From Rhynchopus sp. YZ270_cl-10 (taxonomy: Eukaryota), in assembly GCA_964035575.1 (NCBI GenBank), contig OZ037835.1, positions 372,001-436,000 on the forward strand: DNA of 64,000 nt, given 5' to 3'. A program made the position numbers and the translations under genes. Shown piece after piece: positions 3,976-58,386 of the stretch (its first letter is position 1; the number at the start of each line of letters is the position of its first letter). Under the pieces are notes generated by a model. That model was not told the DNA's origin and searched no databases. It saw only the letters and a program-made list of their open reading frames with translations.

Positions 3976-4399
3976 TAATAATTAGTTATTTTCTGCGAAG
4001 TGTGTGGTAAGGGGGGGAGTATAAAACATTACGAAAAAACCTCCACTAGCATTTCGCAAGCTTCATTACCGTTTTGGTTTTCTCCTCACAGCAAAAATGC
4101 CGGGGGGCTGCCACCTCACGTTTTTGTCCCCTCCAGTTTACATAAAGCACTGCATCCATAAAGGAAGCTGTGTCCAATTTGCATAACGTGGATCAACCCA
4201 GAGAGGTCGACGTTTGTCAACATTGTGCACTGGTGAAGAAACGAGTCCTCAATTAGAGTCACAACAGACACAGCACTCAGATCAAGACTCGTCAGCGATG
4301 CGCCAGAGAGGAACTTTTTAGGAATCATGGTCGCAACCTCCGCCTGCAGAAGCAAACACGCCACCTCAGCATCCCTCACAGTCTTCAGCCTCCTTGCGG

Positions 4400-5001
4400 A
4401 TAAACGTTTTTAAAAATAGGATGGAACACCCCGTTCCGAAGAGGAATGCAGCCACCCCGAAAAAGTGGGGGTGTGTCGCCAGTCTGCGGTGAGAAACTCC
4501 TCCCTGAGTCAAAACTGCCGCTGGTTAGCGCTGGCTAAGGTTCCCTTTTCACCCGGTCACAATCGAGTCTCGCTCCGTCGGCGTTGACTGCACTGCAAAG
4601 CCCCTTGGTCCACCGTCGTAAAAAGACACCACAAAAAGCGTAGGTAGGTGGGGGACCGGCAGGTTACAGACAGAGGCAGTACGGAGCTAAGGTGTCGGCG
4701 GTCGCGGGTTTCCGTGGAGGCCTGCCCCCCGTGGAGGTCTTGGGATCTGGGAGTTGTGGAAGTAATCGGCTCAGAGTACCCTGCATTCCATGCACGACTC
4801 GAGCTCCTTGTGGTAGGATATTGGGGTCCCGGGAAGCACCCTTCGCCCCGAGGTCCCACCACCCCAGACAGTTTGTAGGTCTAAAAGCACAACGTACTTG
4901 TCCAGGACCTGGCCGCTCTTGGGTTCTCTCGAAAAAAAGATACTAATCCCGTACGCCCGTGCACCGCAAAAATGTGCTATGGGGGGCGGTCCGCCGTCGG
5001 G
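4400..5001 (-). mobile_element. 602-bp non-coding insertion, copy A (SINE-like retroposon), 19-20 bp TSD
   Basis: agtcttcagcctccttgcgg occurs at 4380-4399 and 5002-5021. The body is almost identical to 39502-40103. Confidence 0.9.
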
Positions 5002-5608
5002 AGTCTTCAGCCTCCTTGCGGTGATGTCCCTCTCACCCAACGCATGAAGTGCTGCTCTGGCCTCGACCTTCTTCTCCGTCGTCAACTCGATTGTGTCTCC
5101 AGCACTCAGCCGTGTCATGTCGTATCCTTCGTCCATCGCCTCCCCGCCGAAACTCATCACAAAGCCGTCTTCAGGCAACCCCACTGCAGACGCCACCTTC
5201 CGACGCATCACCGCAGGTGTGTCATCCTCACCCAGCTCGACCGTATGCTTCACTCCGTTCAACCCTTTGATGGTCAAATCCATATTGTCCTATAATCAAA
5301 GCCTTTGTCCTGTTGTATTGGTGTGATGAGGTGGAGAAGGTGTGTGGAAAGAAACAACACTGCACATCTGCTCTCTTTTTTATAACATATTCATTTGGGG
5401 TGACGATGGGTGCACGCAGCAAGAAAAACAACACAAACAACAAAGAACGAAGTACGGAAAAGTGATGGGCGACAGCCTGGTCAGATGCCTCCTCGACCAA
5501 ATGGGCGGCGATATTCGAAGGCACACCTGAGCGAGTTGCACAGCTGAGTGAAGCAGCTGTCACAGCGGAGCTGCTCTACGTTCCTTGCCTAGCTTCTCCT
5601 GTCGCTCT

Positions 5609-6949
5609 TTACGAAACACTGCAGCAATGCACGGCTTCTTTCGTCTTGTCTCTGCCACGTGTCGGAGGTGCGTCAACCACATACTCTTTCAGATTGCATT
5701 GACGTACTCGACTGGACACAGCACTGCTGCAGCCGGCAAGGTGGATGCTCCTCAACGAAGTGTCGTGGTTACTCACATATATAGATTGTAGCTCACCCAT
5801 GTGCGTAACATTGCGAAGTGGTGACAGGTCGAGTTCTGTGAGGCTGGTGCAGTGTGCAAGAAAGCTTGTACCAATGTGTGTAACATTGAGAAGTGGACAT
5901 AAGTCCACTTCTGTGAGGCTGCTGCAGTTGGCAAGAAAGCTCGTACTGATGTGTGTAACATTGCGAAGTGGTGATAAGTCCACTTCTGTGAGGCTGGTGC
6001 AGTGGCCAAGAAACCAGTCGTCAATGTGAGTAACATTGCTGAGTGGTGAGACGTCTACTGCTGTGAGGTTTCTGCAGTTGTAAAGAAAGCATGCACCAAG
6101 CCCAGTAACATTGCTGAGTGGTGATAAATCCACTACTGGGAGGCAGCTGCAGTGGGCAAGAAACCAGCCATCAATGTGAGTAACATTGCGAAGTGGTGAT
6201 AAGTCCACTGCTCTGAGGCTGCTGCAGTGGGCAAGAAAGTCGGTACCCATGTGCGTAACATTGCGAAGTGGTGATAAGTCGACTGCTGCGAGGCCGCTGC
6301 AGCCGTAAAGAAAGCTTGTATTAATATGTGTAACATTGCGAAGTGGTGATAAGTCTAGTTCTGTGAGGCTTCTGCAGCTGGCAAGAAAACAGTCATCAAT
6401 GTGAGTAACATTGCGAAGTGGTGATAAGTCCACTGCTGTGAGGCTGATGCAGCTGCTAAGAAAGTTGGTACCCACCCGCGTGAGACGTGTCAACCCAGAC
6501 AGGTCGAGGCTTGTTAACGTTGTGCACCCGAAAAGGAAATTGACAGAAATTTCCGTCACACACGACACAGCACTCAGATCAAGTCTCGTTAACGATGAAC
6601 GCGCCAAGAATCCTTTCGGAATGACAGTCGCAACCTCCGCCTGCAGAAGCAAACACGCAACCTCAGCATCCTCCACAGTCGCCAGCCTCTCTGCTGTGAT
6701 GTCCTCACCCAACGCATGAAGTGCTGCTCTGGCTACGAACTTCTTACTTTTCGTCAGGATGATTGCGTCTCCAGCACTCAGCTGCGTGATGTCGTCTCCT
6801 TCCTCCTTCCCTCCGAAGCCCATGTGGAAGCTGTCCTCAGCCAACCCCACTGCAGACGCCACCTTCTGCCTCATCGTCTCCGTTGTGTCATCCACACCCA
6901 CCTCGATCGCATGCGAGTTGTCTGCGAAGTCCTTGATAACTACTTCCAT
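5609..6949 (-). CDS. UBL-LRR protein copy 2 (446 aa; ~11 LRRs; C-terminal CCSVS)
   Basis: Intact ORF. The N-terminal ~70 aa have a ubiquitin-like pattern (MEVVIKDF..IEVGVDDTTETMRQKVASAVGL..LSAGDAIIL), followed by 24-aa repeats LTxVDLSPLRNVTHIxxxFLxxCxS. Confidence 0.9.
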   Translation of the reverse strand: MEVVIKDFADNSHAIEVGVDDTTETMRQKVASAVGLAEDSFHMGFGGKEEGDDITQLSAGDAIILTKSKKFVARAALHALGEDITAERLATVEDAEVACLLLQAEVATVIPKGFLARSSLTRLDLSAVSCVTEISVNFLFGCTTLTSLDLSGLTRLTRVGTNFLSSCISLTAVDLSPLRNVTHIDDCFLASCRSLTELDLSPLRNVTHINTSFLYGCSGLAAVDLSPLRNVTHMGTDFLAHCSSLRAVDLSPLRNVTHIDGWFLAHCSCLPVVDLSPLSNVTGLGACFLYNCRNLTAVDVSPLSNVTHIDDWFLGHCTSLTEVDLSPLRNVTHISTSFLANCSSLTEVDLCPLLNVTHIGTSFLAHCTSLTELDLSPLRNVTHMGELQSIYVSNHDTSLRSIHLAGCSSAVSSRVRQCNLKEYVVDAPPTRGRDKTKEAVHCCSVS

Positions 6950-7318
6950 TTTGTCTTCTATTCTTTGTGTTGCTCTGTTGTGTGGTGGGGTTGTGGGAGT
7001 TGGGGCTGTGGTGGGTGAACATGGTCAAAGAAAAACAACAACGAGGAGAACAAGGGTGATAGGGGTGCACAAGGTGGAGGTAGTGGGGCCTTTTGATGGA
7101 AAACATGTTGTTGCGTACTTCGAGAAGATCTTCCAGGGAGGTTGTGGGCATGTGTGGATGCTCAGACCCCACAGAACATCAAAACGGTGTGGAACCGATG
7201 AGGCGAGGTCTTGAGATTGACCCACATGCATTCTGCCCTCACCTCCCACTCACCTCTCTCCCTTGGTACCCTTCTTCCCGTCCTGCCCTTTATCCCCTCC
7301 CATCAGCACACCACGTTG

Positions 7319-8252: not shown

Positions 8253-9652
8253 CTACACACAGCTGGGAGGTCGAATTCGCGAGGCACGAGAGTTTGCTGC
8301 CTCAAGCTCATCAAGCAGCACCTGTGCAACGTCTGTGTGATTTTCCTCCTCCGCATACTGCAACGCAGTGTAGTTCCTTACAGTGTCTCGGTGATTCAGT
8401 TCCACCTCTGGCAAGCCCACAAGATAGCGCACAGTGTCGGTGTGTCCACAACGTGCCGCAAGGATAAGACACGTGCATCCTTCATTGTCTGTGGCACGCA
8501 CTCCCGCACCTGCTTCAACCAACATCTTCACATCGTTAAGTTCTCCTGAAGTGCAAGCAAAGTGCAGAGGCGAACGTCCCTCGTGGTTCTGTGCGTCGAT
8601 GTCTGCACCTGCATCAATCAGCACCTGCACCATGCTTGTGAGATTGTCATCCACAACATAGTACAACGCAGTCTCCGATCGAGTCTCGGAATCAATTCGC
8701 TGATTCACATCAACCTCTGGCAAGCTCAGAAGATAGCGAACAGTCTCGATGTGTTCAGATTCTGCCGCGCACATAAGACACGTGAATCCGTCGTCATCAG
8801 TGGCACTGACTTCCGCACCTGCTCTAACCAACATCTTCACAATGTCAAGTTCTCCATTACAGCATGCAGTGTGCAGAGGTGAAGTTCCCGTGTTGTCCAC
8901 CCCGATGTCTGCACCTGCATCAATCAGCACCTGCACCACTTCTGCATGCTTTTGCACTACCGCTTGGTGTAACGCAGTGTGGTTGTAACAGTTTGTGTGG
9001 TTCATATCCACCTCTGGCAAGCCCACAAGATAGTGCACGTCTCGGCTTCTCCATGTGCTGCCGCATCATAAAGACACGTCCACCCTTCGTTGTCTCCGAC
9101 ACGCACTCCCGCACCTGCTTCAACCAACATCTTCACAACGTCAAGTTCTCCTGAAGCACAAGAAGAGTGCAGAGGCGAACATCCGTCCTCATCTTTTGTC
9201 TGTAAGTCTGCCCCTGCATCAATCAAGACGCGACACACTGCAGGGTCTGACCACATGGCCGGACAGTCATCCTCCTCACCTGCGCTGTGTTTGGACTCGC
9301 GCGGGACAAACGCCACGTTGTTGCAGACGGATTTCCAATGCTGCAAGAGGACCTCCGTGCACGCAACGTGGTCTGCGTGGACACACTCACTCAGCAGCAT
9401 CCCAAAGCCCATCTGCGTTGTCTCGACATACGGAAGAAGCAGTGTGAGGCATTCATCGTGGTTCCCTCTGCATGCCTCGTGCGCAGCATCGAAGGCCACT
9501 TTCTTTCTGTCTGGGTTGAACTTCTCAAGGAACGCCCGCACGGCAGTCGTGTCGCCGTTCCTGGCAGCCTCCACGAAGACCTCGTCTGCAGAAAGCTGTC
9601 TTCTCTTTCGTGGGTTATTGTCCTGCGTGCTGTCTGCGTGTCGCTTCGGCAT
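8253..9652 (-). pseudogene. Ankyrin-repeat protein gene with a single frameshift near 9040
   Basis: Starts MPKRHADS..RKRR at 9652 and has repeated SPLHxAC..G.LDxVKMLVEAGA / TALH motifs. The frame of ORF 9002..9889 must shift into ORF 8253..9038 at GEAET/VHYLVGLPEV. This is a 1-bp loss and could be a sequencing error. Confidence 0.85.
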
Positions 9653-10113
9653 TGTGTGTTTGTGTTGTGTCTTTTGTGTTGGCTTCTTTTTGTGCAGAGG
9701 TTGTGGGTGAGGAAGAACACACATGCAGCACACCCTGTGAGGGAACGGAATGCACGGATACGTCACACACAACCACATGACACCTCCACGAGTCCCCTGT
9801 GCATCACAACCCACCTTCAGGTCAGTGCAATGACTATCTTGGACCCAGGTGGACCCCCACCCATGCAGTTTTACATTCGTGGAGTACATCTGATGTGCGC
9901 TACTCTCGCTTCCTCGCTCATCAGTCGGATGAATGAAAGGAACATTGAAGGTGCAGGGTCATTAAGTCTGCGTGATACAGACTCAGTGAGTCAGGATTCG
10001 ATAGGCAAGAGAGTACACAAGGTATGCAGGATGTGTGCATGAAAATTGCGTCCCTTTCCCCCCCTTCCTTTTAATCTACAAATCCTCTTTTTCTTTCAAA
10101 AAACTCTTCCTTC

Positions 10114-10322: not shown

Positions 10323-10355
10323 AATTATTGAATAGAACCCCCCTATCGCCCACCC

Positions 10356-20704: not shown

Positions 20705-21961
20705 TTACGAAACACTGCAGCAATGCACGGCTGCCTTCGTCTTGTCTCTGTCACGTGTCGGAGGTGCGTCAACCACATACTTCTTCAGCTCGCTTTCACG
20801 TACTCGACTGGACACAGCACTGCTGCAGCCGGCAAGGTGGATGCTCCTCAACGAAATGTAACCTTCAGCAGGAAGCTCACCAAAATGCATAACTCTGCTG
20901 AGTGGTGATAGGTCGAGTTCTGTGAGGCTGCTGCAGTCGGCAAGAAAACCGTCTTTAATGTGTGTAACATTGCGAAGTGGTGATAAGTCCACTGTTGTGA
21001 GGCTGATGCAGAAGGCAAGAAAGTAGCCATCAATGCGTGCTACATTGCTGAGTGGTGATACGTCTAGATCTGTGAGGCTGTTGCACTCGGAGAGAAAGCT
21101 CAAACCAATGTGAGTAACATTGCGAAGTGGTGATAAGTCTACTGTTGTGAGGCTGCTGCAACCGGCAAGAAAGCAGTGATCAATTTGTGTAACATTGCTG
21201 ATTGGTGATAAGTCTACTGCTGTGAGGCTGATGCAGTAGGCAAGAAAGCTGTAATCAATGTGTGTAACATGGCGAAGTGGTGATAAGTCCACTGTTGTGA
21301 GGCTGCTGCAGTAGGCAAGAAAGCAGTCATCAATGCGTGGCACATTGCTGAGTGGTGATAAGTCTAGTTCCGTGAGGCTCTTGCAGGCGGAGAGAAAGCT
21401 TATACCAATGTGAGTAACATTGCTGAGTGGAGATAAGTCGACTGCTGTGAGGCTGTTGCAGTTGTGAAGAAAGCTGTTACCAATCCGGGTGAGACGTGTC
21501 AACCCAGACAAGTCGACGCTCGTCAACGATGTGCACCCTTGAAGAAACTCATCGCCAATTTCCGTCACACAGGACACAGCACTCAGATCAAGTCTCGTTA
21601 ACGTTGTGTGCGCCAAGAACCTGTTCGGAATGACAGTCGCAACCTCCGCCTGCAGAAGCAAACACGCCACCTCAGCATCCTCCACAGTCTCCAGCCGCTC
21701 TGCAGTGATGTCCTCACCCAACGCATGAAGTGCTGCTCTGGCCACGAACTTCTTACTTTTCGTCAGGATGATGGTGTCCCTAGCACTCAGCTGCGTGATG
21801 TGGTCTTCGGCCAGCACCTTCCCTCCGAAGCTAATGTCAAAGCCGTCTTCGCGCAACTCTGCTGCAGACGCCACCTTCCGCCGTATGTCCGCAGTTGTAT
21901 CATCCACACCCACATCGACTGTGTACTTCTCTCCGTCAAAGCTCTCCACACATATTTCCAT
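20705..21961 (-). CDS. UBL-LRR protein copy 3 (418 aa; ~10 LRRs; CCSVS)
   Basis: Intact ORF with the same architecture and a more divergent UBL (MEICVESFDGEKYTVDVGVDDT). Confidence 0.9.
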   Translation of the reverse strand: MEICVESFDGEKYTVDVGVDDTTADIRRKVASAAELREDGFDISFGGKVLAEDHITQLSARDTIILTKSKKFVARAALHALGEDITAERLETVEDAEVACLLLQAEVATVIPNRFLAHTTLTRLDLSAVSCVTEIGDEFLQGCTSLTSVDLSGLTRLTRIGNSFLHNCNSLTAVDLSPLSNVTHIGISFLSACKSLTELDLSPLSNVPRIDDCFLAYCSSLTTVDLSPLRHVTHIDYSFLAYCISLTAVDLSPISNVTQIDHCFLAGCSSLTTVDLSPLRNVTHIGLSFLSECNSLTDLDVSPLSNVARIDGYFLAFCISLTTVDLSPLRNVTHIKDGFLADCSSLTELDLSPLSRVMHFGELPAEGYISLRSIHLAGCSSAVSSRVRESELKKYVVDAPPTRDRDKTKAAVHCCSVS

Positions 21962-23742
21962 GGTTTTGTGTCTCTCTGTTTTGTGGAGGTGTTTTCAATT
22001 GGGGGTAAGAGTATGCAAGAGAGAACAAACAGTTACAAGGGGAGAGGTCTTTTGTTATGATACATTTGTCCGAATATTTGTGAGAACAGCTTTTTGGGAT
22101 GCGTCCAATGAAAATCACGTTGTGTGTTGTGGCCAGGTCCTCCCCCACATTCCTTCCTCCCAGCCCTGGCAGCGATGCAGCCGCACAAACTGAAAGAAGC
22201 AATACACAAAACCCTAACATACGGCGTGTTAATAAAGAAGACGATCACCTTGTTAAATGTTTGTTACCTTTCCCTTCCTTTCCCCAGACACCATCCCCGA
22301 ATATGCTTTCAAATCAGCCAGGTTCGTGATCCTGGATAAACAACAGCGCACGTCAGTTGTCTCACATACAGTGTGCACACCCTGAAAGTTTAACCCCTAT
22401 CTTCTCACACAGACCCCACCTTTGGTAGTTGGTCTGCCCTACTGCCTCTTCTGCACCGTAGCTGAGTGCCACGGTGACAGCTTGTACCCACCTGCGAAAG
22501 AATGTTCGCAAGGTACCTTCTTCTACTAACGTAAAAAAGCGTAAAAACATAACAAAACCACAACACACCACACTGAATAAACATCAGAGCACGTGCCTGC
22601 AGATCCACAGTTGTTTCACATACAGTACACACCCGACAAGGCAAAGAACACAAACATTTTACACATCCCAAAGCTTCATCCTTATGATCAAGATCTTGAC
22701 AATTCCCACAAAAACGTGGAAGGAAATAGTATATTTTGAATGAAAGTGGTGCTCACGTTTTGGGCACGGGGCGGAGAATAAAATCGGAAACAATCTCTAA
22801 TGAACACACACAGAGGGGCGGGGGGGAACAAATAGCACCTCAGGGTCCTCAGGCGTCACCCACAAGACGCTTCAGCTTGCCTGCGAGTACTCGACTGGAC
22901 ACAGCACTGCTGCAGCCGGCAAGGTGGATGCTCCTCAACGAAGTGCAGTTTCCAGCAGGTAGCTCACCCATGTGCGTCACTCTGCTGAGTGGTGATAGGT
23001 CTAGTTCTGTGAGGCCGGTGCAGTGGTGCAGAAAGCTTGTGTCAATGTGTGTAACATTGCGAAGTGGTGAAAAGTCTACTGTTGTGAGGCTGGTGCAGTA
23101 GGCAAGAAACCGCTCATCAATGTGAGTAACATTGCGAAGTGGTGATAAGTCTACTGTTGTGAGGCTGGTGCAGTGGGAAAGAAAGCGGTCATCAATTTGT
23201 GTAACATTGCGAAGTGGTGATAAGTCCACTGCAGTGAGGCTGCTGCACAAGGCAAGAAACCAGCTATTAATTTGTGCCACACTGCTAAGTGATGATAAGT
23301 CTAGTTCTGTGAGTCTCCTGCAGTTGAAAAGAAATCTTGCACGAATGTGAGTAACATGGCGAAGTGGTGATAAGTCCACTCCTGCGAGTCTGGTGCAGTC
23401 GGAAAGAAAGCTGTTACCAATCCGGGTGAGACGTGTCAACCCAGAAAGGTCAAGGCTTGTCAACGATGTGCACCCGTGAAGAAACTCATCGCCAATTTCC
23501 GTCACACAGGACACAGCACTCAGATCAAGTGCTGTTAACGCCGTCTGTGCCAATGGTGTGCGCGACAGGAAGCTATACGGAATGACAGTCGCAACCTCCG
23601 CCTGCAGAAGCAAACACGCAACCTCAGCATCCTCCACAGTCGCCAGCCGCTCCGCTGTGATGTCCTCACCCAACGCATGAAGTGCTGCTCTGGCCTCGAA
23701 CTTCTTACTTTTCCAGCTTCAAACTTCTTACTTTCCGTCAGG

Positions 23743-25779
23743 TAGGGGTCCGTTTTAGGTCTCTGGCAGGCCGGGCCTTCTTTCTGTGACCTTCCCAACC
23801 AAAAGACCCCCAAAAAACACAGGTACCTGCTGCGTTTAATGGCACTTTACCCCAGTCCCTGGAACAGATCGGCAAGCCGACCAGCCCAGGTATGCATGCC
23901 AACACTACTGGGGGTGCACTGTTCGATAGCATAAAAGAAAAGTCAAAAAGTCAAAAAGACAAGAAGGTCAAACAAAATAGGTACTTCGAACAGGGCTGAC
24001 AGGAGGGGATTCTCACCCGAGGTTCGGTGCCTGTCAGGCTGCGATTAGTGGTTCTGGGTGATTCCCTTCTTCCTAGCCACCGTTACCGCGGTGCCCGCAC
24101 CGTAAGAGAGTGGGGACGGTTCACGACCGTTCGTACGCGTCAGCAAAAGTAGGGGTCGGAGTCCAGGCCCGAACCGGAAACATTAACCTCCGTTTTTCGA
24201 AACATTAAAAAGTAAAAATGAAAAAGAAAAATCAACAGCAAGAGCAGTGTTGCTGTAAAAGAAACAGCAGCACCGTCAGCTAACATGCCACACATTATGG
24301 CAGACGGCCACACAAAATTCCCCTGATTTGTACAGAGAAAGTTGTAACTTCTTCCTTACAAGTAAGGGAGTGCCGGCAGGGAAGGAGTTACAACAAACAG
24401 TGAACAAACTCAAGTACCAGCCTTTCCGCGTAGCACAGACCCTACATTTGGTAGTTGGTCTGCCCTACTGCCTCATCTGCACCGTAGCTGGACGCCACGA
24501 CGACAACTCCTTCATCTATCAACGTACCAAAGCACGTGAAAATAGAACAAAAACAAACACATTGGAAAAACAACAGAGCATGTACCTGCAGATCCACAGT
24601 TGTTTCACGTACAGTGCATACACCCTGAAAGTTTAACCTCTTCCTTCTAGCACAGACGTTGGTCTGCCCTACTGCCTCTTCTGCACCGTAGCTGGACGCC
24701 ACGACGACAACTCCTTCATCTTCAACGTACCAAAGCACGTGAAAATGGAACAAAAACAAACACATTGGAAAACAACAGAGCATGTACCTGCAGAGTGCAT
24801 ACACCCTGAAAGTTTAACCTCTTCCTTCTAGCACAGACGTTGGTCTGCCCTACTGCCTCTTCTGCACCGTAGCTGAATGCCACGGCGACAACTCCTTCAT
24901 CTATCAACGTACCAAAGCACGTGAAAATAGAACAAAAATAAACACATTGGAAAAACAGCAGAGCATGTACCTGCAGATCCACAGTTGTTTCACGTACAGT
25001 GCATACACCCTGAAAGTTTAACCTCTTCCTTCTAGCACAGACGTTGGTCTGCCCTACTGCCTCTTCTGCACCGTAGCTGAATGCCACGGCGACAACTTGT
25101 ACCCACCTGCGAATGAATGTTCGCAGATCCCTTCTTCTACTAACGTAAAAAAAAACGTAAAAACAGACCAAAAACTACAACATGCCACACTGAATTAACG
25201 ACAGAGCACGCACCTGCAGATCCACAGATGTTTCACTACGGTGTACACAGCCTGAGGTTAAACACATAACACAAGAATTCTACTACGGCAAAAAGATGAA
25301 AACTGAACTGAACTGAACAAAACTACAACACACCACACTGAATACACAAGAGCACGTACCTGCTGATCCACAGTTGTTTCACATACAGTGTACGCACCAA
25401 CAAAGCAACAAAACGTTCCCATGCGGTCAAACGACAACACAGGAACAGCAACAATATTCCGTCACCAGTAGAGACACCGGCAACGCTTCCTTCTTGTACC
25501 TGGGATCCCCTCATCGGCATCAACACACTCCCAGTCACCGCACAGGTAACAGATCCTTGAAACCCCTCGAAGGGGTTTGCGTAGCCTACATAAGCTGGTG
25601 ATCTGCCCGAAATTGACTGTGATGTTGTGTTAATAACCAGGGTTCCCACATCGGCTTGTTCCTCCTCCGGTCCCGAGCGAATCCATCATTGGAGAGGCGG
25701 CCGCCCACGCTGACTCAGTACCATGCGAACACGGCGTCCAGGGGCCCCACTTGGCGGTTGGTCAGACGTTAATTGCCCC
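23743..25779 (-). mobile_element. 2.0-kb insertion with 18-19 bp TSD (probable non-autonomous retroposon)
   Basis: cttcttactttccgtcagg occurs at 23724-23742 and 25780-25798. The minus-strand 5' end folds like a degenerate HDV-type ribozyme. Confidence 0.8.
24420..25390. repeat. Tandem ~180-200-bp repeats (ggtctgccctactgcctcttctgcaccgtagctg...), with related copies at ~22360-22630 and 1-60
   Basis: Four clear cores at about 24457, 24661, 24842 and 25045, plus degenerate half-units up to 25390. Positions 25381-25443 match window positions 1-60. Confidence 0.8.
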
Positions 25780-25780
25780 C
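25708..25780 (-). ncRNA. Putative (degenerate) HDV-like self-cleaving ribozyme
   Basis: Minus strand reads GGGGGC..CGTCTGA CCA ACCGCCAAG TGG GGCCCCT GG AC GCCGTG-TTCG-CATGGT ACTGAG TCAGCG. P1, P2, P3, P1.1 and P4 appear in the expected order, but L3 is non-canonical. Confidence 0.5.
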
Positions 25781-26975
25781 TTCTTACTTTCCGTCAGGAT
25801 GATTGTATCTCCAGCACTCAGCTGCGTGATGTCGTCTCCTTCGTCCTTCCCTCCGAAGCCCATGTGGAAGCTGTCCTCAGCCAACCCCACTGCAGACGCC
25901 ACCTTCTGCCGCATCGTCTCCGTTGTGTCATCCACACCCACCTCGATCGCATACGAGTTGTCTGCACAGTCCTTGATAACTACTTCCATTTTGTCTTCTA
26001 TTCTTTGTGTTGCTCTGTTGTGTGGTGGGTTTGTGGGAGTTGGGGCTGTGGTGGGTGAACATGGTCAAAGAAAAACAACAACGAGGAGAACAAGGGTGAT
26101 AGGGGTGTGCACAAGGTGCAGGTAGTGGGGCCTTTTGATGGAAAACATGTTGTTGCGTACTTCGAGAAGAGGTACGCTCCTAAGGACTCATCGCTTTTGT
26201 TGGAAATGTGCAGAAGGGTGTGGGGTGATCGAGGGTCTTATTTGCGAACCACTCGGGTTTCCTCAACACACGACACCACCTGGCCACTGAACCACACCAA
26301 GGAAGAAAGAGCACACAATGTCCGTCCCCTCCACGCTCCTCACATTTTGTTTTGTATTTCTATTTTTTGGCTTTTTGTTACATTGTTGGAACAGGGCCGC
26401 TGAGAGCTGTTCACAAAGCACCATGTGTTCCTTTGCATTCGCACACAAAGCTCTGCACATTTCTCTACCATGCACCACATTTTAGAAATGGGACGATGCT
26501 GCCTTGTAGGTGCTTGGAGCTTATCCCTGTTGAAAACCACATTGTTATGTTCTTCCTTTTTGATTTCAACATTTTTTATTCATTTGTAGTTTTGTTGTTT
26601 GGGAGACATGCCACACATATCGGTTCTGTGGAAAAAGCGGCACGGAACCACCTGTGCTGCCCCTTTTCACCCGCCAAACACCCCAAAAAATCGTTTGGGG
26701 GTGTTTAAGAACATCCCGGTACCTTTGCGCTTTTTATGAATTTTCCTTCCTTACTTCAAAAAGTCTGTCCTTATTTTTGAAAAAGATGAAAAAGCAGAGA
26801 GTTAGACAGCAAAAAAACGTTTGTGTGAAAAAGCTTTTTCTGTCAAGTGTTTTTGTGTGTTGGCGGAGAAGAAAACAGTTTACAATAAAAGACCCCTGCG
26901 TCGGTTTTCTTATTCACAACAAAAACACGTCTTTTGCCCCCACCCCACCACCCCTATCCACCACTCTCACAACGG

Positions 26976-27430: not shown

Positions 27431-29197
27431 CAGGGAGGGCAAAGGTCGAGACTCACACCGACGTCGCAGAATGGGACAAGCAGCTGTCACAGCGGAGCTG
27501 CTCTACGTTCCTTGCCTAGCTTCTCCTGTCGCTCTTTACGAAACACTGCAGCAATGTACGGCTGCTTTCGTGTTGTCGTTCCCACGTGTCGGAGGTGCGT
27601 CAACCACATACTTCTTCAGGTTGCTTTCACGTACTCGACTGGACACAGCACTGCTGCAGCCGGCAAGGTGGATGCTCCTCAACGAAGTGCAGTAGCCAGC
27701 AGGAAGCACACCAAAGTGCGTCACTCTGCTGAGTGGTGATAGGTCGAGTTCTGTGAGGCTGCTGCAGTGGGAAAGAAAGCTTGTACCAATTTTGGTAACA
27801 ATGCTGAGTGGGGATAAGTCTACTACTTTGAGGCTGATGCAGTAGGCAAGAAACCTGTCATTAATATGCGTAACATTGCGAAGTGGTGATAAGTCGACTA
27901 CTGTGAGGCTGGTGCAGTTGTGAAGAAAGTTGGTACCAATGTGAGTAACATTGCGGAGTGGTATTAAGTCCACTGATGTGAGGCTGGTGCAGAAGGCAAG
28001 AAACCAGCCATCAATTTGTGTAACATTATGAAGTGGTGATAAGTCGACTACTGTGAGGCTGACGCAGCTGGAAAGAAAGCTGCTACCAATCCGCGTGATA
28101 CGTGTCAACCCAGACAGGTCGATGCTTGTCAACGCTGAGCAGTCCTGAAGAAACGCAGCGCCGATTTCCGTCACACAGCACACAGCACTCAGATCAAGTG
28201 CTGTTAACGATGTGCTCGCAAGGAACCCATTCGGAATGACAGTCGCAACCTCCGCCTGCAGAAGCAAACACGCAACCTCAGGATCCTCCACAGTCGCCAG
28301 TCTCTCTGCTAATAAACGTTTTTAAAAATAGGATGGAGCACCCCGGTCCGAAAAGGAATGCAGCCACCCCTGGCTTCAGGCTCGCGAACCCAGTATTGCA
28401 GTAACACTGGGTCTCACGGGCCAAAAACCGAACAAAGAAAAGGAAAATGTTTGGGTTCAGCGACAGCGCCAATGGGCTGATGCGACGCTGAACCAACTTA
28501 AAATAAAATAAAAAAATCTTGTATCAACTTGAAAAAGAAAAGCAATGAACAGCAACAGAGCCATTTGGGCTTACGCGTCGCTAAAGTAACTGAAAAACAA
28601 TGTTTTAAAAACAAGAATGTCGTTGACCAAGATTGAAATACACGAAAAAGGTAAAATACTAAGAATTGCCTCATATTCCATGGGCATCGTTTCTGATGTT
28701 GTAGTTTGTCTGCTGAGTGATCACGCGCCCCCCCTGCTAGGGAGGTCTTAGGTTCATGCTTCGGCTTGCACGTAAAAGCTACCATGTCGCGAAGTTAGCG
28801 GTCCTCGTATTCCATGAGGCATTTCTGATGATGTAGTTTGTCTGCTGAGTGATCACGCGCCCCCCCTGCTAGGGAGGTCTTAGGTTCATGCTTCGGCTTG
28901 CACGTAAAGAACTACCATGTCGCCGAAGTTAGCGGTCCTCGTATTCCATGAGGCATTTCTGATGTTGTTTGACTGCTGAGTGATCACGCGCCCCCCCTAC
29001 TAGCCTATACATAGCGTGCGAACGGCTCATTCGCATCATTCGCATCCTGTTCGCATTGGGTATTCGCATCCTGTTCGCATTGGCCAATGCGAACAGGATG
29101 CGAATGACATGCGAATAACATTTATTATGGGGTGGCGACAGGCAAGTTCTCATTTTTTGGTCAATTTCCGCACTACACAGTACACACAGTACACACA

Positions 29198-29644
29198 ATA
29201 TACACAGTATACACATTATACACAGTATACACAGTATACACAGTATACACAGTATACACAGTATACACAGTATACACAGTATACACAGTATACACAGTAT
29301 ACACAGTATACACAGTATACACAGTATACACAGTATACACAGTATACACAGTATACACAGTATACACAGTATACACAGTATACACAGTATACACAGTATA
29401 CACAGTATACACAGTATACACAGTATACACAGTATACACAGTATACACAGTATACACAGTATACACAGTATACACAGTATACACAGTATACACAGTATAC
29501 ACAGTATACACAGTATACACAGTATACACAGTATACACAGTATACACAGTATACACAGTATACACAGTATACACAGTATACACAGTATACACAGTATACA
29601 CAGTATACACAGTATACACAGTATACACAGTATACACAGTATAC
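29198..29644. repeat. (TATACACAG)n minisatellite, about 49 units
   Basis: Read directly from the sequence. Confidence 0.95.
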
Positions 29645-30043
29645 CATAGCTGATAAGCAATAAAGCCTAATAGGATATTGGCCTATTTAAGCCTTATAGA
29701 ATAGGCTAATGAATGGAATAGGCTAATATTTTATTAGCCTATTCCAGTCCTTCCCAGCTACCACTGGTGGTACGGTGGTAGCTGGCTTAACCCGTTAAAC
29801 AAATCCGAAAAATCCAAAATTTAAGGCCAACTCCGTTACAGACACAACACAACTTATTTCTCTTGTGTTTTTCACTGATGAGCGTGAGTGAGGTGTATGT
29901 TACAGCACCAACTGCAGCCTACGTCTAAGATGGCATATAATAGGCTATTAGCCCAATATTAGCCTATTATAAGACATACTGTGGGTGTTATAACGTTATC
30001 GATAACGTTATAACAAGTGTTATTTTGGAATAACGTTATTCAG

Positions 30044-30653
30044 CAGTACAGTACAGTACAGTACAGTACAGTACAGTACAGTACAGTACAGTACAGTACA
30101 GTACAGTACAGTACAGTACAGTACAGTACAGTACAGTACAGTACAGTACAGTACAGTACAGTACAGTACAGTACAGTACAGTACAGTACAGTACAGTACA
30201 GTACAGTACAGTACAGTACAGTACAGTACAGTACAGTACAGTACAGTACAGTACAGTACAGTACAGTACAGTACAGTACAGTACAGTACAGTACAGTACA
30301 GTACAGTACAGTACAGTACAGTACAGTACAGTACAGTACAGTACAGTACAGTACAGTACAGTACAGTACAGTACAGTACAGTACAGTACAGTACAGTACA
30401 GTACAGTACAGTACAGTACAGTACAGTACAGTACAGTACAGTACAGTACAGTACAGTACAGTACAGTACAGTACAGTACAGTACAGTACAGTACAGTACA
30501 GTACAGTACAGTACAGTACAGTACAGTACAGTACAGTACAGTACAGTACAGTACAGTACAGTACAGTACAGTACAGTACAGTACAGTACAGTACAGTACA
30601 GTACAGTACAGTACAGTACAGTACAGTACAGTACAGTACAGTACAGTACAGTA
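30044..30653. repeat. (CAGTA)122 microsatellite
   Basis: Read directly from the sequence. Confidence 0.95.
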
Positions 30654-31099
30654 CCCCTGCTAACGACCCACCCAGAGTGGGACAAAAAAAGCTCATCCCA
30701 AAATATGCCGATCACAAAAAAACACAAAAAACCCCGATCATCCAACAATCACACACCCACAGAATTCACACACTACTATAACATTCGCACTACGTTCGCA
30801 TCATTCGCACTATGTTCGCACTGTGTTCGCATCGTTCGCATCATTCGCACATGCGAATATAGTGCGAATATAGTGCGAATGATGCGAATGATGCGAACGA
30901 CAATGCGAATGAATGCGAACAGGATGCGAATGCATTCGCACATGCGAATATATGCGAATGGTCATTCGCACGCTATGTATGACTAGGGAGGTCTTAGGTT
31001 CATGCTTCGGCTTGCACGTAAAAGCTACCATGTCGCGAAGTTAGCGGTCCTCGTATTCCATGAGGCACTTCAGATGTTGTTCTTCTTTTTCTTCTTGTT

Positions 31100-31165
31100 C
31101 CGAGTCTTTGCCGCAGTCCACTGCGTTGCCCGGGGTCACCTCGTGGAGGTGCTCGGTAAAACCCC
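31100..31165 (-). ncRNA. HDV-like self-cleaving ribozyme at the 5' end of the 28311-31164 insertion
   Basis: Minus strand: GGGGTT(P1) TTA CCGAGC(P2) ACC(P3) TCCACGA(L3) GGT GACCCC(P1') GG GCAAC GCAGT-GG-ACTGC(P4) GGCAAA GACTCGG(P2'). It follows the HDV layout, including GGGCAAC and GGCRAA. Confidence 0.75.
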
Positions 31166-32558
31166 AGTCGCCAGTCTCTCTGCTGTGATGTCCTCACCCA
31201 ACGCATGAAGTGCTGCTCTGGCCACGAACTTCCTACTTTCCGTCAGGATGATTGTATCTCCAGCACTCAGCTGCGTGATGTCGTCTCCTTCGTCCTTCCC
31301 TCCGAAGCCCATGTGGAAGCTGTCCTCAGCCAACCCCACTGCAGACGCCACCTTCTGCCGCATCGTCTCCGTTGTGTCATCCACACCCACCTCGATCACA
31401 TACGAGTTGTCTGCACAGTCCTTGATAACTACTTCCATTTTGTCTTCTATTCTTTGTGTTGCTCTGTTGTGTGGTGGGGTTGTGGGAGTTGGGGCTGTGG
31501 TGGGTGAACATCGTGAAAGAAAAACAACACCTCACCAAAGACGCTTCCTTTGTAGGTAGCCGTACACATTGAGGAGCACTCATGCGGACTACGCCACTTT
31601 GTGTAATATTGCTCTTTACGTCTTTTCCTTCTGTAGTATAAAAGGATTCGGCCAACATTGAGTACAGACCCTCTTCTGGGTACTTAGGCGAGTTGTCGAA
31701 GGATCAAAGCCCGCGAGTGAGACACTGTCAGAGTGTCAAGGTTGTATCCGTAGCTGTTCTCCAGCGTGAGGAGTTGCCCAGCCCGTCAAGATCAATGTGA
31801 ACTCGGTGTGCAGTGAGCCCGAGCATGAAAGGTCCCAACACGCCGTCACCATCGGAAGTTGCTCATCCCCACTTACATGAAAGGCAAACGACCCGTTAGC
31901 ACAGTCCTCCACGTCTGAGCACAGCGCAACGTGGGCAGCACCCTCGTCATTGGAGCAGCAGTTCTCGGTGCGTAAGGAAGCAGGGCGAACCGAGAGACAC
32001 TATTTCAGGGACACCCAGTTCGCCCTTGAATTGCTCGACATGTCTTTTTTCAGTGTAACAAAATGAAATACACCCTTCTTTATTTATTCGTTGTTTATTG
32101 TTTGTTGATCGCATCCATCCACCCGTTTTTTATTCAAACCCCAAAAGTCCCGCAAAAACCCGCGTCCTGAAGTACGGGGGAGGTGGAGCACAAAAGGGGG
32201 GAAGGGGAAAACGGCAAGACTCATGACAACCGAAGAACGGCATCTTTCATTTCCAGACGTATTTGAAATCCCAAAATCCACCTATGTTTTTACCCCACCG
32301 GTGTTTGTTGTCTTACTGTAGACATATTGAAACAGCACTCCTACTGTACTGTACTGTACTGTTTCCCACCCCCGCAAACAATAAAGACAAAAGGGAGAGG
32401 TGGTGAAACGCACACACCTCGACCTGTCGGTGAAGTGTGGCTCTACTCCAACCCACCCGACAATAGGAAACAAGGAAGGGAGTTGGTGTACGGTGTTCAA
32501 TTTCTTTTTTTGGCATTGCATGTAACCATATCAAAATCATGTCAGCGCGACTTCGTTT

Positions 32559-33683
32559 TTATCTCCCCCAGTTGCATCCGCACAAACGTTTGAACAAGCT
32601 GAGCCCCTCCGTTGGGTGGTCATCATCATCGCAATCATCATCAGCACCCATAAGCTTCTTCAGCTCGCCTTCACGTACTCGGCTGGACACAGCACTGCTG
32701 CAGCCGGCAAGGTGGATGCTCCTCAACGAAGTGCAGTTGTCAGCAGCGTGCTCTTCCATGACCGTAACATTGCTGAATGGCGACAGATCTAGTTCTGTAA
32801 GGCCGGTGCAGGAGTACAGAAAGTACTCATTAATGTGTGTAAGATTGCTGAGTGGTGATAAGTCCAACACTGTAAGGCTGTGGCAGTGGCGAAGGAATGC
32901 GTGACCAATATGTGTAACATTGCTGAGTGGTGACAAATCTAACATTGTCAGGCTCGTGCAGTGGTCAAGAAAGCTGGACCCAATTGCCGTAACATTGCGA
33001 AGTGGTGATAAGTCCACTGCGGAGAGGCTGGCGCAGTTGTGCAGAAATCTGCAACCAGTATGTGCAACATTGCGAAGTGGTGATAAGTCCACTGCTGTGA
33101 GGCTGCTGCAGTTGTCAAGAAAGCTTGGCCCAATTTGTGCAACATTGCAAAGCGGCGATAAGTCCACTGCTGTGAGGTTTATGCAGGCACAAAGAAAGTT
33201 GGTACCAATCCGCATGAGACGTGTCAACCCAGAAAGGTCGACGCTGGTCAACGACCTACACCAGTGAAGAAAATAATCACCGATTTCCGTCACACAGGAC
33301 ACAGCACTCAGATCAAGTGCTGTTAACGATGTGCGCGCCAGGAACCTATTCGGAATGACAGTCGCAACCTCCGCCTGCAGAAGCAAACACGCAACCTCAG
33401 CATCCTCCACAGTCACCAGCCTCTCTGCTGTGATGTCCTCACCCAACGCATGAAGTGCTGCTCTGGCCACAAACTTCTTACTTTCCGTCAGGATGATTGT
33501 GTCTCCAGCACTCAGCTGCGTGATGTCGTCTCCTTCGTCCTTCCCTCCGAAGCCCATGTGGAAGCTGTCCTCAGCCAACCCCACTGCAGACGCCACCTTC
33601 TGCCGCATCGTCTCCGTTGTGTCATCCACACCCACCTCGATCACATACGAGTTGTCTGCACAGTCCTTGATAACTACTTCCAT
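32559..33683 (-). CDS. UBL-LRR protein copy 6 (374 aa; ~8 LRRs; acidic/Cys tail ..LFKRLCGCNWGR)
   Basis: Intact ORF. The start was placed at MEVVIK (33683) by comparison with paralogs. Confidence 0.9.
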   Translation of the reverse strand: MEVVIKDCADNSYVIEVGVDDTTETMRQKVASAVGLAEDSFHMGFGGKDEGDDITQLSAGDTIILTESKKFVARAALHALGEDITAERLVTVEDAEVACLLLQAEVATVIPNRFLARTSLTALDLSAVSCVTEIGDYFLHWCRSLTSVDLSGLTRLMRIGTNFLCACINLTAVDLSPLCNVAQIGPSFLDNCSSLTAVDLSPLRNVAHTGCRFLHNCASLSAVDLSPLRNVTAIGSSFLDHCTSLTMLDLSPLSNVTHIGHAFLRHCHSLTVLDLSPLSNLTHINEYFLYSCTGLTELDLSPFSNVTVMEEHAADNCTSLRSIHLAGCSSAVSSRVREGELKKLMGADDDCDDDDHPTEGLSLFKRLCGCNWGR

Positions 33684-34740
33684 TTTGTCTTCTATTCTTT
33701 GTGTTGCTCTGTTGTGTGGTGGGGTTGTGGGGTTGTGGGAGTTGGGGCTGTGGTGGGTGAACATGGTCAAAGAAAAACAACACCTCACCAAAGCCGCTTC
33801 CAACGACGACACCATTAAAAACTGTTATTCACACAAATTGCAACAAAGGGGGGGAGAGCTCAAACAAGTCTTTGTATATATTACACACAGTATTTCCACA
33901 TTTAAACAATCCCTTAGTATCAACCAACGTGAATAGAAGTTGGCCCACGTACTACCACGTTAGCAGCGCCTGCATGATAAACCACGCTGGTAGGTAACAG
34001 GAGAGGAACAGAGAGCACAGTTGCTGGGGGTGGTGAAACACACACCTCGACCTGTCGGTGAAATGTGGCTCTACTCCAAGCCGCCCCGGATTAGAAAAAT
34101 GGAAAAAGCATGGGAGTACGGTGTTCAATTACCTTTTAGCATTGCATGTAATCATAAAATTGAAACCGCACCCTACTTGTCATTTTTATGTTTTTCCCCC
34201 ACCCCCACAAACAATAAAGCAATAAAAACAATAAAGACAAAAGAGAGAGGATGTGGCGAAACGCACACACCCAAAAACAAGATCACTATCTTGGCCACCT
34301 CAGCTTTGCTGATGATTTCATACCCCCTCCCCTTTCTTTCAACCGTTACGGTGGACTCCCCCACCAGCGCGGCCTTTCCCCTTAGGCGTGCACGACCGAG
34401 CGTTCGGTCCCTGCCGATATTTCGGCACTGTCAGTGACCCACACAAAACCACGCAACTCACACCCGTGTATGTGTCCGCCGATATTTCGGCACCGTCCGC
34501 ATCGCTCACACACGAGCAAACTCCACCGATTTTTCGGTGCACGTGTTCTTACCCCTGTTTCAATCACTCGCGGATCGATTACAAAATAATAAAAACCCCT
34601 GTCATCCTTTGTTTAGTTGGTACGCTACCCACGTCATACGCCTGAAGTACAGAAATGAGGTGAGTGCACAATAATAGGGGAAAGGAATAAACGACAAGTC
34701 TCAGATGTTTCAATCATTTCCCACCACAAAGTATTTGTCC

Positions 34741-36478: not shown

Positions 36479-37477
36479 TTACGAAACACTGCAGCAAGTC
36501 GGAGGTTCGTCAACCACATACTTGTTCAGCTTGCTTTCACGTACTCGACTGGACACAGCACTGCTGCAGCCGCCAAGGTGGATGCTCCTCAACGAAGTGT
36601 AGCCGATAGCAGGAAGAAGCTTACCAAAGTGCGTAACTCTGCTGAGTGGTGATAGGTCTAGTTCTGTGAGGCTGGTGCAGCCGGCAAGAAAACTGTCTTT
36701 AATGTGTGTAACGTTGCAAAGTGGAGATAAGTCCACTACTTTGAGGCTCCTGCATAAGTAAAGAAAGAGGCCATCAATTTGAGTAACATTGCAAAGTGGT
36801 GATAAGTCCACTGCTGTGAGGCTGGTGCAGAAGGCAAGAAACCAGCCATTAATGTGTGTAACATTGCTGAGTGGAGATAAGTCTAGTTCTGTGAGGCACC
36901 TGCAGTTGAAAAGAAAGCGGTCATTAAATTGTTTAACATTGCGAAGTGGTGATAAGTCCACTGTTGTGACGCTCATGCATTCGGAAAGAAAGCTCTCGCC
37001 AATCCGGGTGAGACGTGTCAACCCAGACAGGTCGAGGCTTGTTAACGTTGTGCAACCGTAAAGAAACGCATCGCCAATTTCCGTCACACACGACACAGCA
37101 CTCAGATCAAGTGCTGTTAACGATGTGCGCGCCAGGAACCTATTCGGAATGACAGTCGTGACCTCCGCCTGCAGAAGCAAACACGCAACCTCAGCATCCT
37201 CCACAGTCGCCAGTCTCTCCGCTGTGATGTCCTCACCCAACGCATGAAGTGCTGCTCTGGCCACGAACTTCTTACTTTTCGTCAGGATGATTGTGTCTCC
37301 AGCACTCAGCTGCGTGATGTCGTCTCCTTCGTCCTTCCCTCCGAAGCCCATGTGGAAGCTGTCCTCAGCCAACCCCACTGCAGACGTCACCTTCTGCCGC
37401 ATCGTCTCCGTTGTGTCATCCACACCCACCTCGATCACATACGAGTTGTCTGCACAGTCCTTGATAACTACTTCCAT
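36479..37477 (-). CDS. UBL-LRR protein copy 7 (332 aa; ~7 LRRs; CCSVS)
   Basis: Intact ORF with the same architecture. Confidence 0.9.
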   Translation of the reverse strand: MEVVIKDCADNSYVIEVGVDDTTETMRQKVTSAVGLAEDSFHMGFGGKDEGDDITQLSAGDTIILTKSKKFVARAALHALGEDITAERLATVEDAEVACLLLQAEVTTVIPNRFLARTSLTALDLSAVSCVTEIGDAFLYGCTTLTSLDLSGLTRLTRIGESFLSECMSVTTVDLSPLRNVKQFNDRFLFNCRCLTELDLSPLSNVTHINGWFLAFCTSLTAVDLSPLCNVTQIDGLFLYLCRSLKVVDLSPLCNVTHIKDSFLAGCTSLTELDLSPLSRVTHFGKLLPAIGYTSLRSIHLGGCSSAVSSRVRESKLNKYVVDEPPTCCSVS

Positions 37478-38711
37478 TTTGTCTTCTATTCTTTGTGTTG
37501 CTCTGTTGTGTGGTGGGGTTGTGGGAGTTGGGGCTGTGGTGGGTGAATATGGTCAAAGAAAAACAACACCTCACCAAAGCCGCTTCCAACGACAACACCA
37601 TTAAAAAATGTTATTCACACAAATTGCAAAAAGGGGGGAAGAGTTCAAACAAGTCTTTGTATAATATGGCTATTATTATCAATACAGTATTTCCACATTT
37701 AACACGTTTTTGTATCCCTTAGTATCAACTAACATGAATAGAAGTTGGCCCACGTACTACCACGTTAGCAGCGCCTGCATGATAAACCACGCTGGTAGGT
37801 AACAGGAGAGGAACAGAGAGCACAGTTGCTGGGGTGGTGAAACGCACACACCTCGACCTGTCGGTGAAATGTGGCTCTACTCCAACCCACCCCGGATTAG
37901 AAAAATGGAAAAAGCATGGGAGTAGGGTGCGGTGTTCAGTTTCCTTTTAGCATTGCATGTAATCATAAAATTGAAACCGCACCCTACTTTTCCTTTTTAT
38001 GTTTTACCCCCACCCCCACAAACAATAAAGACAAAAGAGAGAGGATGTGGCGAAACGCACACACCCAAAAACAAGATCGCTATCTTGGCCACCTCAGCTT
38101 TGCTGATGATTTCATACCCCCTCCCCTTTCTTCAACCGTTACGGTGGACTCCCCACCAGCGCGGCCTTTCCCCTTAGGCGTGCACGACCGAGCTTTCGGT
38201 CCCTGCCGATATTTCGGCACTGTCAGTGACCCACACAAAACCACGCAACTCACACCCGTGTATGTGTCCCGTCCACATCGCTCACACACGAGCAAACTCC
38301 ACAGACTTTTCGGTGCACGTGTTCTTACCCCTGTTTCAATCACTCGCGGATCGACTACAAAATAATAAAAACCCCCTTTCATCTTTCGTTTAGTTGGTAC
38401 GCTACCCACGTCATACGCCTGAAGTACAGAAATGAGGTGAGTGCACAATAATAGGGGAAGGGAATAAACGACAAGTCTCAGATGTTTCAATCATTTCCCA
38501 CCACAAAGTATTTGTCCTCATAAAAAAACCCCCCCACCCCGAGGCATTCATGGCCTACGTTAACGCGTAACCAATTAGCACAGATGAAAACCCCATCTAC
38601 CTCACTGCCTCGCAGACAGTGTACAGGGCACTTGGCCTACCTGAGAGAGTTGCGCAGCTGAGTGAAGCAGCTGTCACAGCGGAGCTGCTGCCTAGCTTCT
38701 CCTGTCGCTCT

Positions 38712-40376
38712 TTACGAAACACTGCAGCAATGTACGGCTTCCTTCGTCTTGTCGTTGCCATGTGTCGGAGGTGCGTCAACCACATACTTCTTCAGCTCGC
38801 CTTCGCGTACTCGACTGGACACAGCACTGCTGCAGCCGGCAAGGTGGATGCTCCTCAACGAAGTGTAGCTGTAAGCACGAATCTTTCCCAAATGCGTAAC
38901 TCTGCGGAGTGGTGATAGGTCGAGTTCTGTGAGGCTGCTGCAGTCGGTGAGAAAGTATATACCAATGTGAGTAACATTGCTGAGTGGTGATAAGTCCACT
39001 ACATTCAAGACTTTGCAGTGGGCAAGAAACCAGTCAGCAATGTGTGTAACATTGCTGAGTTGAGATAAGTCTACTGACGTGAGGCCGCTGCAGAAGGCAA
39101 GAAAACCGTCTTTAATGTGAGTCACATTGCGAAGTGGTGATAAGTCTACTGATGTGAGGCTACTGCAGTTGTAATGAAAGTGGTAATCAATGTGTGTAAC
39201 ATTGCGAAGTGGTGATAAGTCCACTGCTGTGAGGCTGGTGCAGCCGGAAAGAAAGCTGTAACCAATCCGGGTGAGACGTGTCAACCCAGACAGGTCGAGG
39301 CTTGTTAACGTTGTGCACCCGTCAAGAAACGCATCGCCGATTTCCGTCACACAGCACACAGCACTCAGATCAAGTGCTGTTAACGCCGTCTGTGCCAATG
39401 GTGAGCGCGCCAGGAACCTATTCGGAATGACAGTCGCAACCTCCGCCTGCAGAAGCAAACACGCCACCTCAGCATCCTCCACAGTCTTCAGCCTCTCTGC
39501 TCTAAACGTTTTTAAAAATAGGATGGAACACCCCGTTCCGAAGAGGAATGCAGCCACCCCGAAAAAGTGGGGGGTGTGTCGCCAGTCTGCGGTGAGAAAC
39601 TCCTCCCTGAGTCAAAACTGCCGCTGGTTAGCGCTGGCTAAGGTTCCCTTTTCACCCGGTCACAATCGAGTCTCGCTCCGTCGGCGTTGACTGCACTGCA
39701 AAGCCCCTTGGTCCACCGTCGTAAAAAGACACCACAAAAAGCGTAGGTAGGTGGGGGACCGGCAGGTTACAGACAGAGGCAGTACGGAGCTAAGGTGTCG
39801 GCGGTCGCGGGTTTCCGTGGAGGCCTGCCCCCCGTGGAGGTCTTGGGATCTGGGAGTTGTGGAAGTAATCGGCTCAGAGTACCCTGCTTTCCATGCACGA
39901 CTCGAGCTCCTTGTGGTAGGATATTGGGGTCCCGGGAAGCACCCTTCGCCCCGAGGTCCCACCACCCCAGACAGTTTGTAGGTCTAAAAGCACAACGTAC
40001 TTGTCCAGGACCTGGCCGCTCTTGGGTTCTCTCAAAAAAAGATACTAATCCCGTACGCCCGTGCACCGCAAAAATGTGCTATGGGGGGCGGTCCGCCGTC
40101 GGGAGTCTTCAGCCTCTCTGCTGTGATGTCCTCACCCAACGCATGAAGTGCTGCTCTGGCCACGAACTTCTTACTTTTCTTCAGGATGATTGTGTCTCCA
40201 GCACTCAGCTGCGTGATGTCGTCTCCTTCCTCCTTCCCTCCGAAGCCCATGTGGAAGCTGTCCTCAGCCAACCCCACTGCAGACGCCACCTTCTGCCGCA
40301 TCGTCTCCGTTGTGTCATCCACACCCACCTCGATCACATACGAGTTGTCTGCACAGTCCTTGATAACTACTTCCAT
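38712..40376 (-). pseudogene. UBL-LRR gene copy 8, split by the 602-bp element (CCSVS tail)
   Basis: UBL part at 40104-40376 and LRR part at 38712-39501. Confidence 0.88.
39502..40103 (-). mobile_element. 602-bp non-coding insertion, copy B, 19-bp TSD
   Basis: agtcttcagcctctctgct occurs at 39483-39501 and 40104-40122. The body is nearly identical to 4400-5001. Confidence 0.9.
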
Positions 40377-58326: not shown

Positions 58327-58386
58327 AGACGTGTTTTCTTTTTGTTTTTCTTGTCCTTTTTGTTTTTATTTTCCTGTTGGTGAAAG

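Follow-up and report, generated by a model that had tools for sequence, protein, structure and literature searches.

Retrotransposons without long terminal repeats (non-LTR elements) that return to one nucleotide of a repeated gene are mostly known from ribosomal and other RNA genes, while protein-coding targets are described mainly for the RHS and MASP families of trypanosomes. The usual list of site-specific non-LTR targets names no protein-coding family. In T. brucei and T. cruzi, the protein-coding RHS genes are multicopy and receive ingi/RIME at a fixed position of their 5′ coding region (PMC7563717, PMC6393297), and TcTREZO of T. cruzi is a site-specific element composed of mixed genomic pieces and found mostly in MASP pseudogenes (PMC5814959). 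In a 64-kb stretch of Rhynchopus sp. YZ270_cl-10 DNA (contig OZ037835.1, positions 372,001 to 436,000; hereafter, the window), short non-coding retroposons occupy one fixed nucleotide, designated site A, in the coding sequence of genes for proteins with a ubiquitin-like (UBL) domain and leucine-rich repeats (LRR). Retroposons of this type probably entered many UBL-LRR genes singly, through target-primed reverse transcription (TPRT) supplied in trans by the protein of a sequence-specific long interspersed nuclear element (LINE). [quoted passage not shown]

As in the RHS family, which has a LINE/SINE pair (SINE, short interspersed nuclear element), the genes described here include pseudogenes whose two halves are separated by a single element or several; unlike RHS, the hosts are UBL-LRR genes, TSDs are 18–20 bp rather than 12 bp, poly(A) is absent, and at least three separate sites are used, each with its own tail. 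Also, while ingi shows only relative specificity, most of the 602-bp copies described below are apparently at one site. The system resembles Drosophila R2 short internally deleted elements (SIDEs) and R2/R1 hybrid SIDEs in combining a 5′ hepatitis delta virus (HDV)-like ribozyme with a 3′ end that decides machinery and site (PMC3414825); R2/R1 SIDEs are likewise released from a host co-transcript, as presumed here, and use several sites in one repeated gene (PMC3414825). It differs from R2 SIDEs in targeting a protein-coding family rather than 28S rDNA. The CRE clade (SLACS, CZAR, CRE1/2) shares a fixed position in a multicopy gene and TSDs of variable size (PMC12278014), and a LINE with motifs resembling a restriction-like endonuclease (RLE) is present in the window; however, the genes hit by CRE elements are those of spliced-leader RNA, and a poly(A) end is the general rule in this clade (PMC12278014), whereas the target here is UBL-LRR coding sequence. 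Like TcTREZO, our elements insert mostly in a protein-coding multigene family (PMC5814959) but, compared by description only, they have a ribozyme head and a multi-site organization that the accessible TcTREZO text does not mention (PMC5814959). The system is a recent and genome-wide variant of sequence-specific retroposition, R2-SIDE-like but in a protein-coding array. Outside subscription papers, Repbase, and supplements, titles and abstract openings yielded no literature on this UBL-LRR system.

All three inserts at site A in the window are on the minus strand, in host-gene orientation (Table 1), and all duplicate the same 19–20 bp; as initially proposed, they share the same nucleotide, with each 5′ junction located after the same codon (RL[K/A]T). 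Both TSD copies of each insert match the variant of its own host paralog (3/3 inserts), also in line with the earlier claim. Inserts 1 and 3 are 602-bp bodies that differ at four positions (99.5% identity), while their hosts show only 78% (UBL half) and 77% (LRR half) identity, confirming that near-identical elements reside in divergent genes. ORFs (open reading frames) of 342 and 347 aa were regained after deletion of an insert and one TSD copy, and the 354-aa ORF of paralog 1 was regained only after deletion of its second insert too; the hosts were therefore intact when hit. Site-A inserts are flanked by TSDs and carry neither terminal inverted repeats (TIRs) nor long terminal repeats, as is characteristic of non-LTR retroposons, and six-frame translations of the inserts showed no coding capacity for a reverse transcriptase (RT) or endonuclease. 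Insert 2 does have a different body, as initially annotated, but this body is an 872-bp core and the bulk of the insert is a nested 1.98-kb TIR element with microsatellites (52 copies of a 9-bp unit and 122 copies of a 5-bp unit); insert 2 ends at 31165 rather than 31164, because the match at the 20th base is due to the G with which the ribozyme starts. Reading the 5′ end of insert 2 as a LINE ORF truncated down to its C-terminus was rejected, as this stretch is the ribozyme and homolog searches returned nothing credible; for a 41-aa frame overlapping the ribozyme, one search gave no matches and another gave one, P0168, a repeat-inflated unrelated protein. Two further TSD-flanked inserts in the same family (at sites B and C, described below) had been overlooked in the initial annotation.

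The reading frame is set by the junction, so that all sense insertions of the 602-bp element at site A give the same read-through peptide. A search of predicted proteins with this fusion peptide yielded 20 matches, to which cluster look-ups added 27 members, for a total of 47 proteins. Forty-one of these represent the 602-bp element fused at the identical codon, on 16 contigs of different length that include the contig of the window and presumably belong to a single assembly; five are uninterrupted at site A. The fusion proteins show 20 different pentapeptides preceding the junction, and their host parts are 51–100% identical (median 61%, n = 32), compared to 95–100% (median 98.7%, n = 30) for the element peptide. 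On a host tree with 153 rows (32 occupied and 121 intact, after nine short occupied and four intact rows were dropped), the occupied/intact label changes 23 times; the 32 occupied hosts fall into 10 groups when clustered at 80% identity and into 22 when clustered at 95%, and for 16 of them the nearest relative is intact rather than occupied (five ties). The defining behavior of sequence-specific non-LTR elements, in which a repeated target is entered independently at a single nucleotide, is thus observed; judged from these alignments, the insertions appear to be many, with some later duplication possible.

The host genes are intronless, and the family comprises 458 clusters (245–783 aa) in the predicted-protein database; the window contains 10 UBL-LRR paralogs with site A in view, three occupied and seven empty. 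Gene arrays that are intronless and on one strand may point to a euglenozoan such as a diplonemid. The N-terminal ATP/GTP-binding motif that immediately precedes the hot spot in the RHS family was not found in the host proteins, which are of the ubiquitin-like plus LRR type; an ESM Atlas search with the host protein gave only low-score leads (best 0.83), and a search of metagenome contigs for the host gene gave 259 pattern matches, none confirmed. Among 121 intact members, residues +5 to +19 after site A are 78–100% conserved, while residues −2 and −1 are conserved in only 34% and 45%; no neighboring codons vary more than those immediately preceding the junction, and the DNA downstream of site A is largely invariant in the 10 window paralogs. 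The combination of variable junction codons and a conserved downstream stretch suggests that recognition occurs beside the cut and not at it. Three database proteins (P0100, P0001, and P0139) leave the LRR frame abruptly, P0100 at a position resembling site C, and may represent further insertions.

Site-A inserts share a 58–59-nt 3′ tail (95% identity) that lacks poly(A), which agrees with the common end of about 60 bp initially annotated; a 21-nt core of this tail occurs three times in the window, compared to a mean of 0.00 in 100 shuffles, and one or two variable bases are found at the 3′ junction. The tail is common to two non-autonomous families (602-bp and insert-2 type) and is likely an RT-recognition tail. 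At the other end, insert 2 begins with a match to the HDV-like model RF02682 in Rfam (37.7 bits, E = 1e-5, full model 1–74, below the gathering score of 44) and fits a strict HDV-like descriptor anchored at +1, as did 0/300 shuffles; with an HDV-like fold at nucleotide +1, insert 2 can be classified as an R2-SIDE-type ribozyme-headed retroposon, with cleavage being predicted. An Rfam scan of the whole window returned 47 matches, none reaching the gathering score and most of them to microRNA models that fell on repeats. The 5′ ends of the 602-bp and site-C elements are homologous (score 52, compared to a shuffle maximum of 33) and both fit one relaxed double-pseudoknot descriptor, through base pairs that differ between them and with a long L3; the folding scripts placed the site-C join 2 bases away from the join implied by the run contigs.

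Sites B and C each have their own TSD and their own tail. Within the gene, site B lies 63 bp upstream of site A, and four database proteins start in the site-B tail and then enter the 602-bp element, representing genes hit at both sites; in two of these, the site-B tail seems to be attached to a second body. At its 5′ end, the site-B element loosely fitted an HDV-like descriptor, which was not confirmed by the strict descriptor or later tests, and no ribozyme match was found for it. Internal repeats of the site-B element resemble 22354–22644 and 1–62, and an extra 23-bp duplication-like piece adjoining site B (23701–23723; an imperfect repeat of ~18 bp plus five bases), which frameshifts the gene, is possibly an abortive insertion. 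The site-C element consists of a core of about 614–616 bp and a nested 2.7-kb piece (about 1344–4090), with run contigs joining ~1343 to 4091; the nested piece includes a tyrosine-recombinase ORF (2461–3534) and has no obvious TSD or TIR. Different bodies with one tail share site A, and a related head with another tail is found at site C, suggesting that the tail may select the insertion site.

By analogy with established TPRT (R2 and L1Tc models), the element RNA would arise by read-through from the host gene and, as in R2, be released by its 5′ ribozyme through cleavage at +1; the 58-nt tail would then recruit the LINE protein and thereby pick the site. The second nick would be made at the first base of the conserved VED-EVACLLLQAEVAT codon block, after a first nick 19–20 bp upstream of that base, with recognition through this block and the D-I-T codons rather than the variable codons at the cut; the host gene would be knocked out, with the several hundred copies of the family acting as a buffer. 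The partner of the site-A retroposons is, on balance, probably an RLE LINE (CRE/R2-like), favored by the TSD length, the lack of poly(A), and a GGGG-starting ribozyme in common with a local RLE-like LINE. This LINE, which starts at 58164, has an ORF of >1872 aa with OTU-like regions on both sides of the RT and a ribozyme with a long J1/2. Pfam detected only RVT_1 and a weak OTU domain, and the element also shows motifs that appear RLE-like; ESM Atlas gave only generic RT clusters. Its ribozyme fits the descriptor, as did 3/300 shuffles, with an Rfam E value of only 5.8. Nothing ties this LINE to the site-A tail, because it is located outside the family, after an A-run, and the window stops short of its 3′ end. 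More tentatively, the UBL-LRR family may form an rDNA-like niche that hosts several strictly specific RLE-type LINE machineries, each with its own conserved codon block, and ribozyme-headed non-coding parasites that swap heads and tails and rely on host transcription.

Contigs of run X1 show a depth of 5500 at the element end, compared to about 100–125 for paralog-specific contigs, corresponding to ~50 copies. Non-target flanks were found at the 5′ junction in 3/29 contigs in X1 and, among the matches listed, in up to 3/26 in X3 and 1/25 in X4. One X1 contig contains the element, a TSD variant, and then a second tail, representing a tandem at the same site, and a mixed X4 consensus suggests another element-TSD-element tandem. 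Most 602-bp copies are thus apparently at one site, with near-exclusive use of one codon boundary. Several observations weigh against this interpretation or its proposed mechanism. The protein search sees only in-frame sense insertions in genes of 92–296 aa, and the proportion of 41/47 therefore overstates specificity; one of the 47 proteins (P0132) has part of the element behind unrelated upstream sequence with a different junction. Contig depth gives a rough copy estimate, with some run records filtered out, and one contig type in X1, X2, and X4 joins a variant of the site-A tail to another UBL position (window 5145), a possible fourth site that speaks against a strict pairing of one tail with one site. 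Eleven of the 32 occupied hosts are nearer to another occupied copy, some being near-identical, and part of the fusion count can therefore stem from later duplication. The stem-loop initially annotated in the tail did not hold up, as it folds no better than shuffles (z = −1.43 and −0.81), and no autonomous element bearing the site-A tail was found in the window or in metagenome contigs (tail pattern, 0 matches). Finally, the 602-bp element has no Rfam or strict-descriptor ribozyme match, and its relaxed fold was also fitted by 15/150 shuffles (52/150 for the site-C element); given this weak test, the HDV-like fold of the 602-bp and site-C elements is a candidate only.

An element of the ingi/RIME type, with an apurinic/apyrimidinic endonuclease (APE), a loose consensus, and only relative specificity, could also yield this pattern if the UBL-LRR family were a preferred hot spot and many copies were located elsewhere. 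Such a hot spot has its precedent in trypanosome RHS genes (PMC7563717, PMC6393297), an HDV-like 5′ end is a typical feature of the ingi/L1Tc clade, tandem copies with a TSD between them have been described for ingi, and a few off-target flanks do exist in the run contigs. However, ingi-clade TSDs are a conserved 12 bp, compared to 18–20 bp here, ingi-clade elements end in poly(A) (PMC12278014), which is absent here, and the off-target flanks are few against roughly 50 copies, making this explanation unlikely; an early guess that the site-A elements belong to the ingi clade had failed on TSD length and poly(A), although their 5′ ends may loosely resemble the Pr77 (76–79-bp) signature of that clade. 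Fixed ends and a near-fixed TSD length would also suit target-specific cut-and-paste DNA transposons, but the lack of terminal inverted repeats, a ribozyme at +1, a 3′ tail as the only common part, and 1–2 variable bases at the 3′ junction leave this idea with next to no probability.

The elements are ~99% identical in hosts that are ~61% identical, which is difficult to reconcile with an origin of all copies in a single insertion, or a few, that multiplied when occupied genes underwent gene conversion or were duplicated in tandem or as segments. This scenario gains some weight from the tandem amplification of the family (458 clusters), from occupied hosts that are ≥95% identical, and from occupied labels slightly more clustered than shuffled ones (24 changes, compared to a mean of 29.8 and a minimum of 22, with a few rows mis-sliced). 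Nevertheless, there are 20 different junction pentapeptides and two unrelated bodies at site A, and both TSD copies match the host and not a donor; duplication or gene conversion as the sole cause is largely refuted and highly improbable. It is only slightly less improbable that the inserts are introner-like or non-canonical introns, removed from mRNA so that the genes stay functional. For inserts 1 and 3, the TSD contains a GC-AG register that would give exact excision, and GC-AG introns occur in Diplonema (PMC10161547), which may not be the lineage of the host; yet insert 2, site B, and site C have no such register, donor and acceptor contexts appear weak by eye, and the 5′ ribozyme, if active, would cut the pre-mRNA. 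Run-contig joints that skip 622 bases can be empty paralogs.

If the UBL-LRR family does form such an rDNA-like niche, the partner LINEs would supply retroelement endonucleases of a new kind, directed at exons, and the head common to the 602-bp and site-C elements would represent a new HDV-like variant with an enlarged L3. The partner enzymes could also widen the range of R2-like insertion tools. Varied sequence is tolerated at the cut, and several tail-defined sites are used in one gene; the system may thus serve as a natural test of how target specificity evolves and of whether the 3′ tail alone sets the site, as well as of the idea that such insertions drive gene-family expansion.

Table 1. 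Positions of the retroposons, their parts, and their host genes in the window.
Feature	Position	Strand	Remark
Insert 1, 602-bp non-coding retroposon copy 1 at site A	4400..5001	-	
TSD of insert 1, 20 bp	3′ side 4380..4399; 5′ side 5002..5021	-	
Shared tail in insert 1, 58–59 nt	4400..4458	-	without poly(A)
5′ end of 602-bp element, candidate divergent HDV-like fold, enlarged L3	4900..5001	-	homologous to site-C element 5′ end; fold not significant by itself
Insert 2 at site A, 872-bp non-coding retroposon core plus nested element	28311..31165	-	
TSD of insert 2, 19 bp	3′ side 28292..28310; 5′ copy 31166–31184	-	
Shared tail in insert 2	28312..28370	-	
132-bp tandem repeats of insert-2 body	28669..29003, resuming 30983–31080	-	
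Nested TIR element in insert 2, 1.98 kb	29004..30982	.	16-bp perfect inner inverted repeat, CTAG on both flanks
HDV-like ribozyme from first base of insert 2	31098..31165	-	Rfam RF02682, strict descriptor
Insert 3, 602-bp retroposon copy 2 at site A	39502..40103	-	
TSD of insert 3, 19 bp	3′ side 39483..39501; 5′ copy 40104–40122	-	
Site-B element, 2037 bp, own tail	23743..25779	-	19-bp TSD 23724–23742/25780–25798
Site-C element in LRR part of paralog 1	771..4131	-	18-bp TSD 753–770/4132–4149
UBL-LRR host paralog 1, interrupted at both A and C	218..5283	-	
Host paralog interrupted by insert 2	27536..31438	-	
Host paralog interrupted by insert 3	38712..40376	-	
Host paralog broken at site B, site A empty	22849..25989	-	
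Intact paralog, site A empty	5609..7024	-	
Further paralogs with empty site A	20705–21994; 32559–33824; 36479–37552; 41623–43041; 43811–44749		
Autonomous non-LTR element with HDV-like ribozyme at 58164, outside UBL-LRR family	58164..64000	+	RT, weak OTU, RLE-like motifs

The window also contains an ankyrin-repeat gene (8253–9958) that is split over two frames around 9002–9065, and a hAT-like transposase fragment (45840–47606; DUF659 match) with T-rich repeats on its flanks. A long near-perfect inverted repeat was identified at 49176–49866, with the same translation on both strands.

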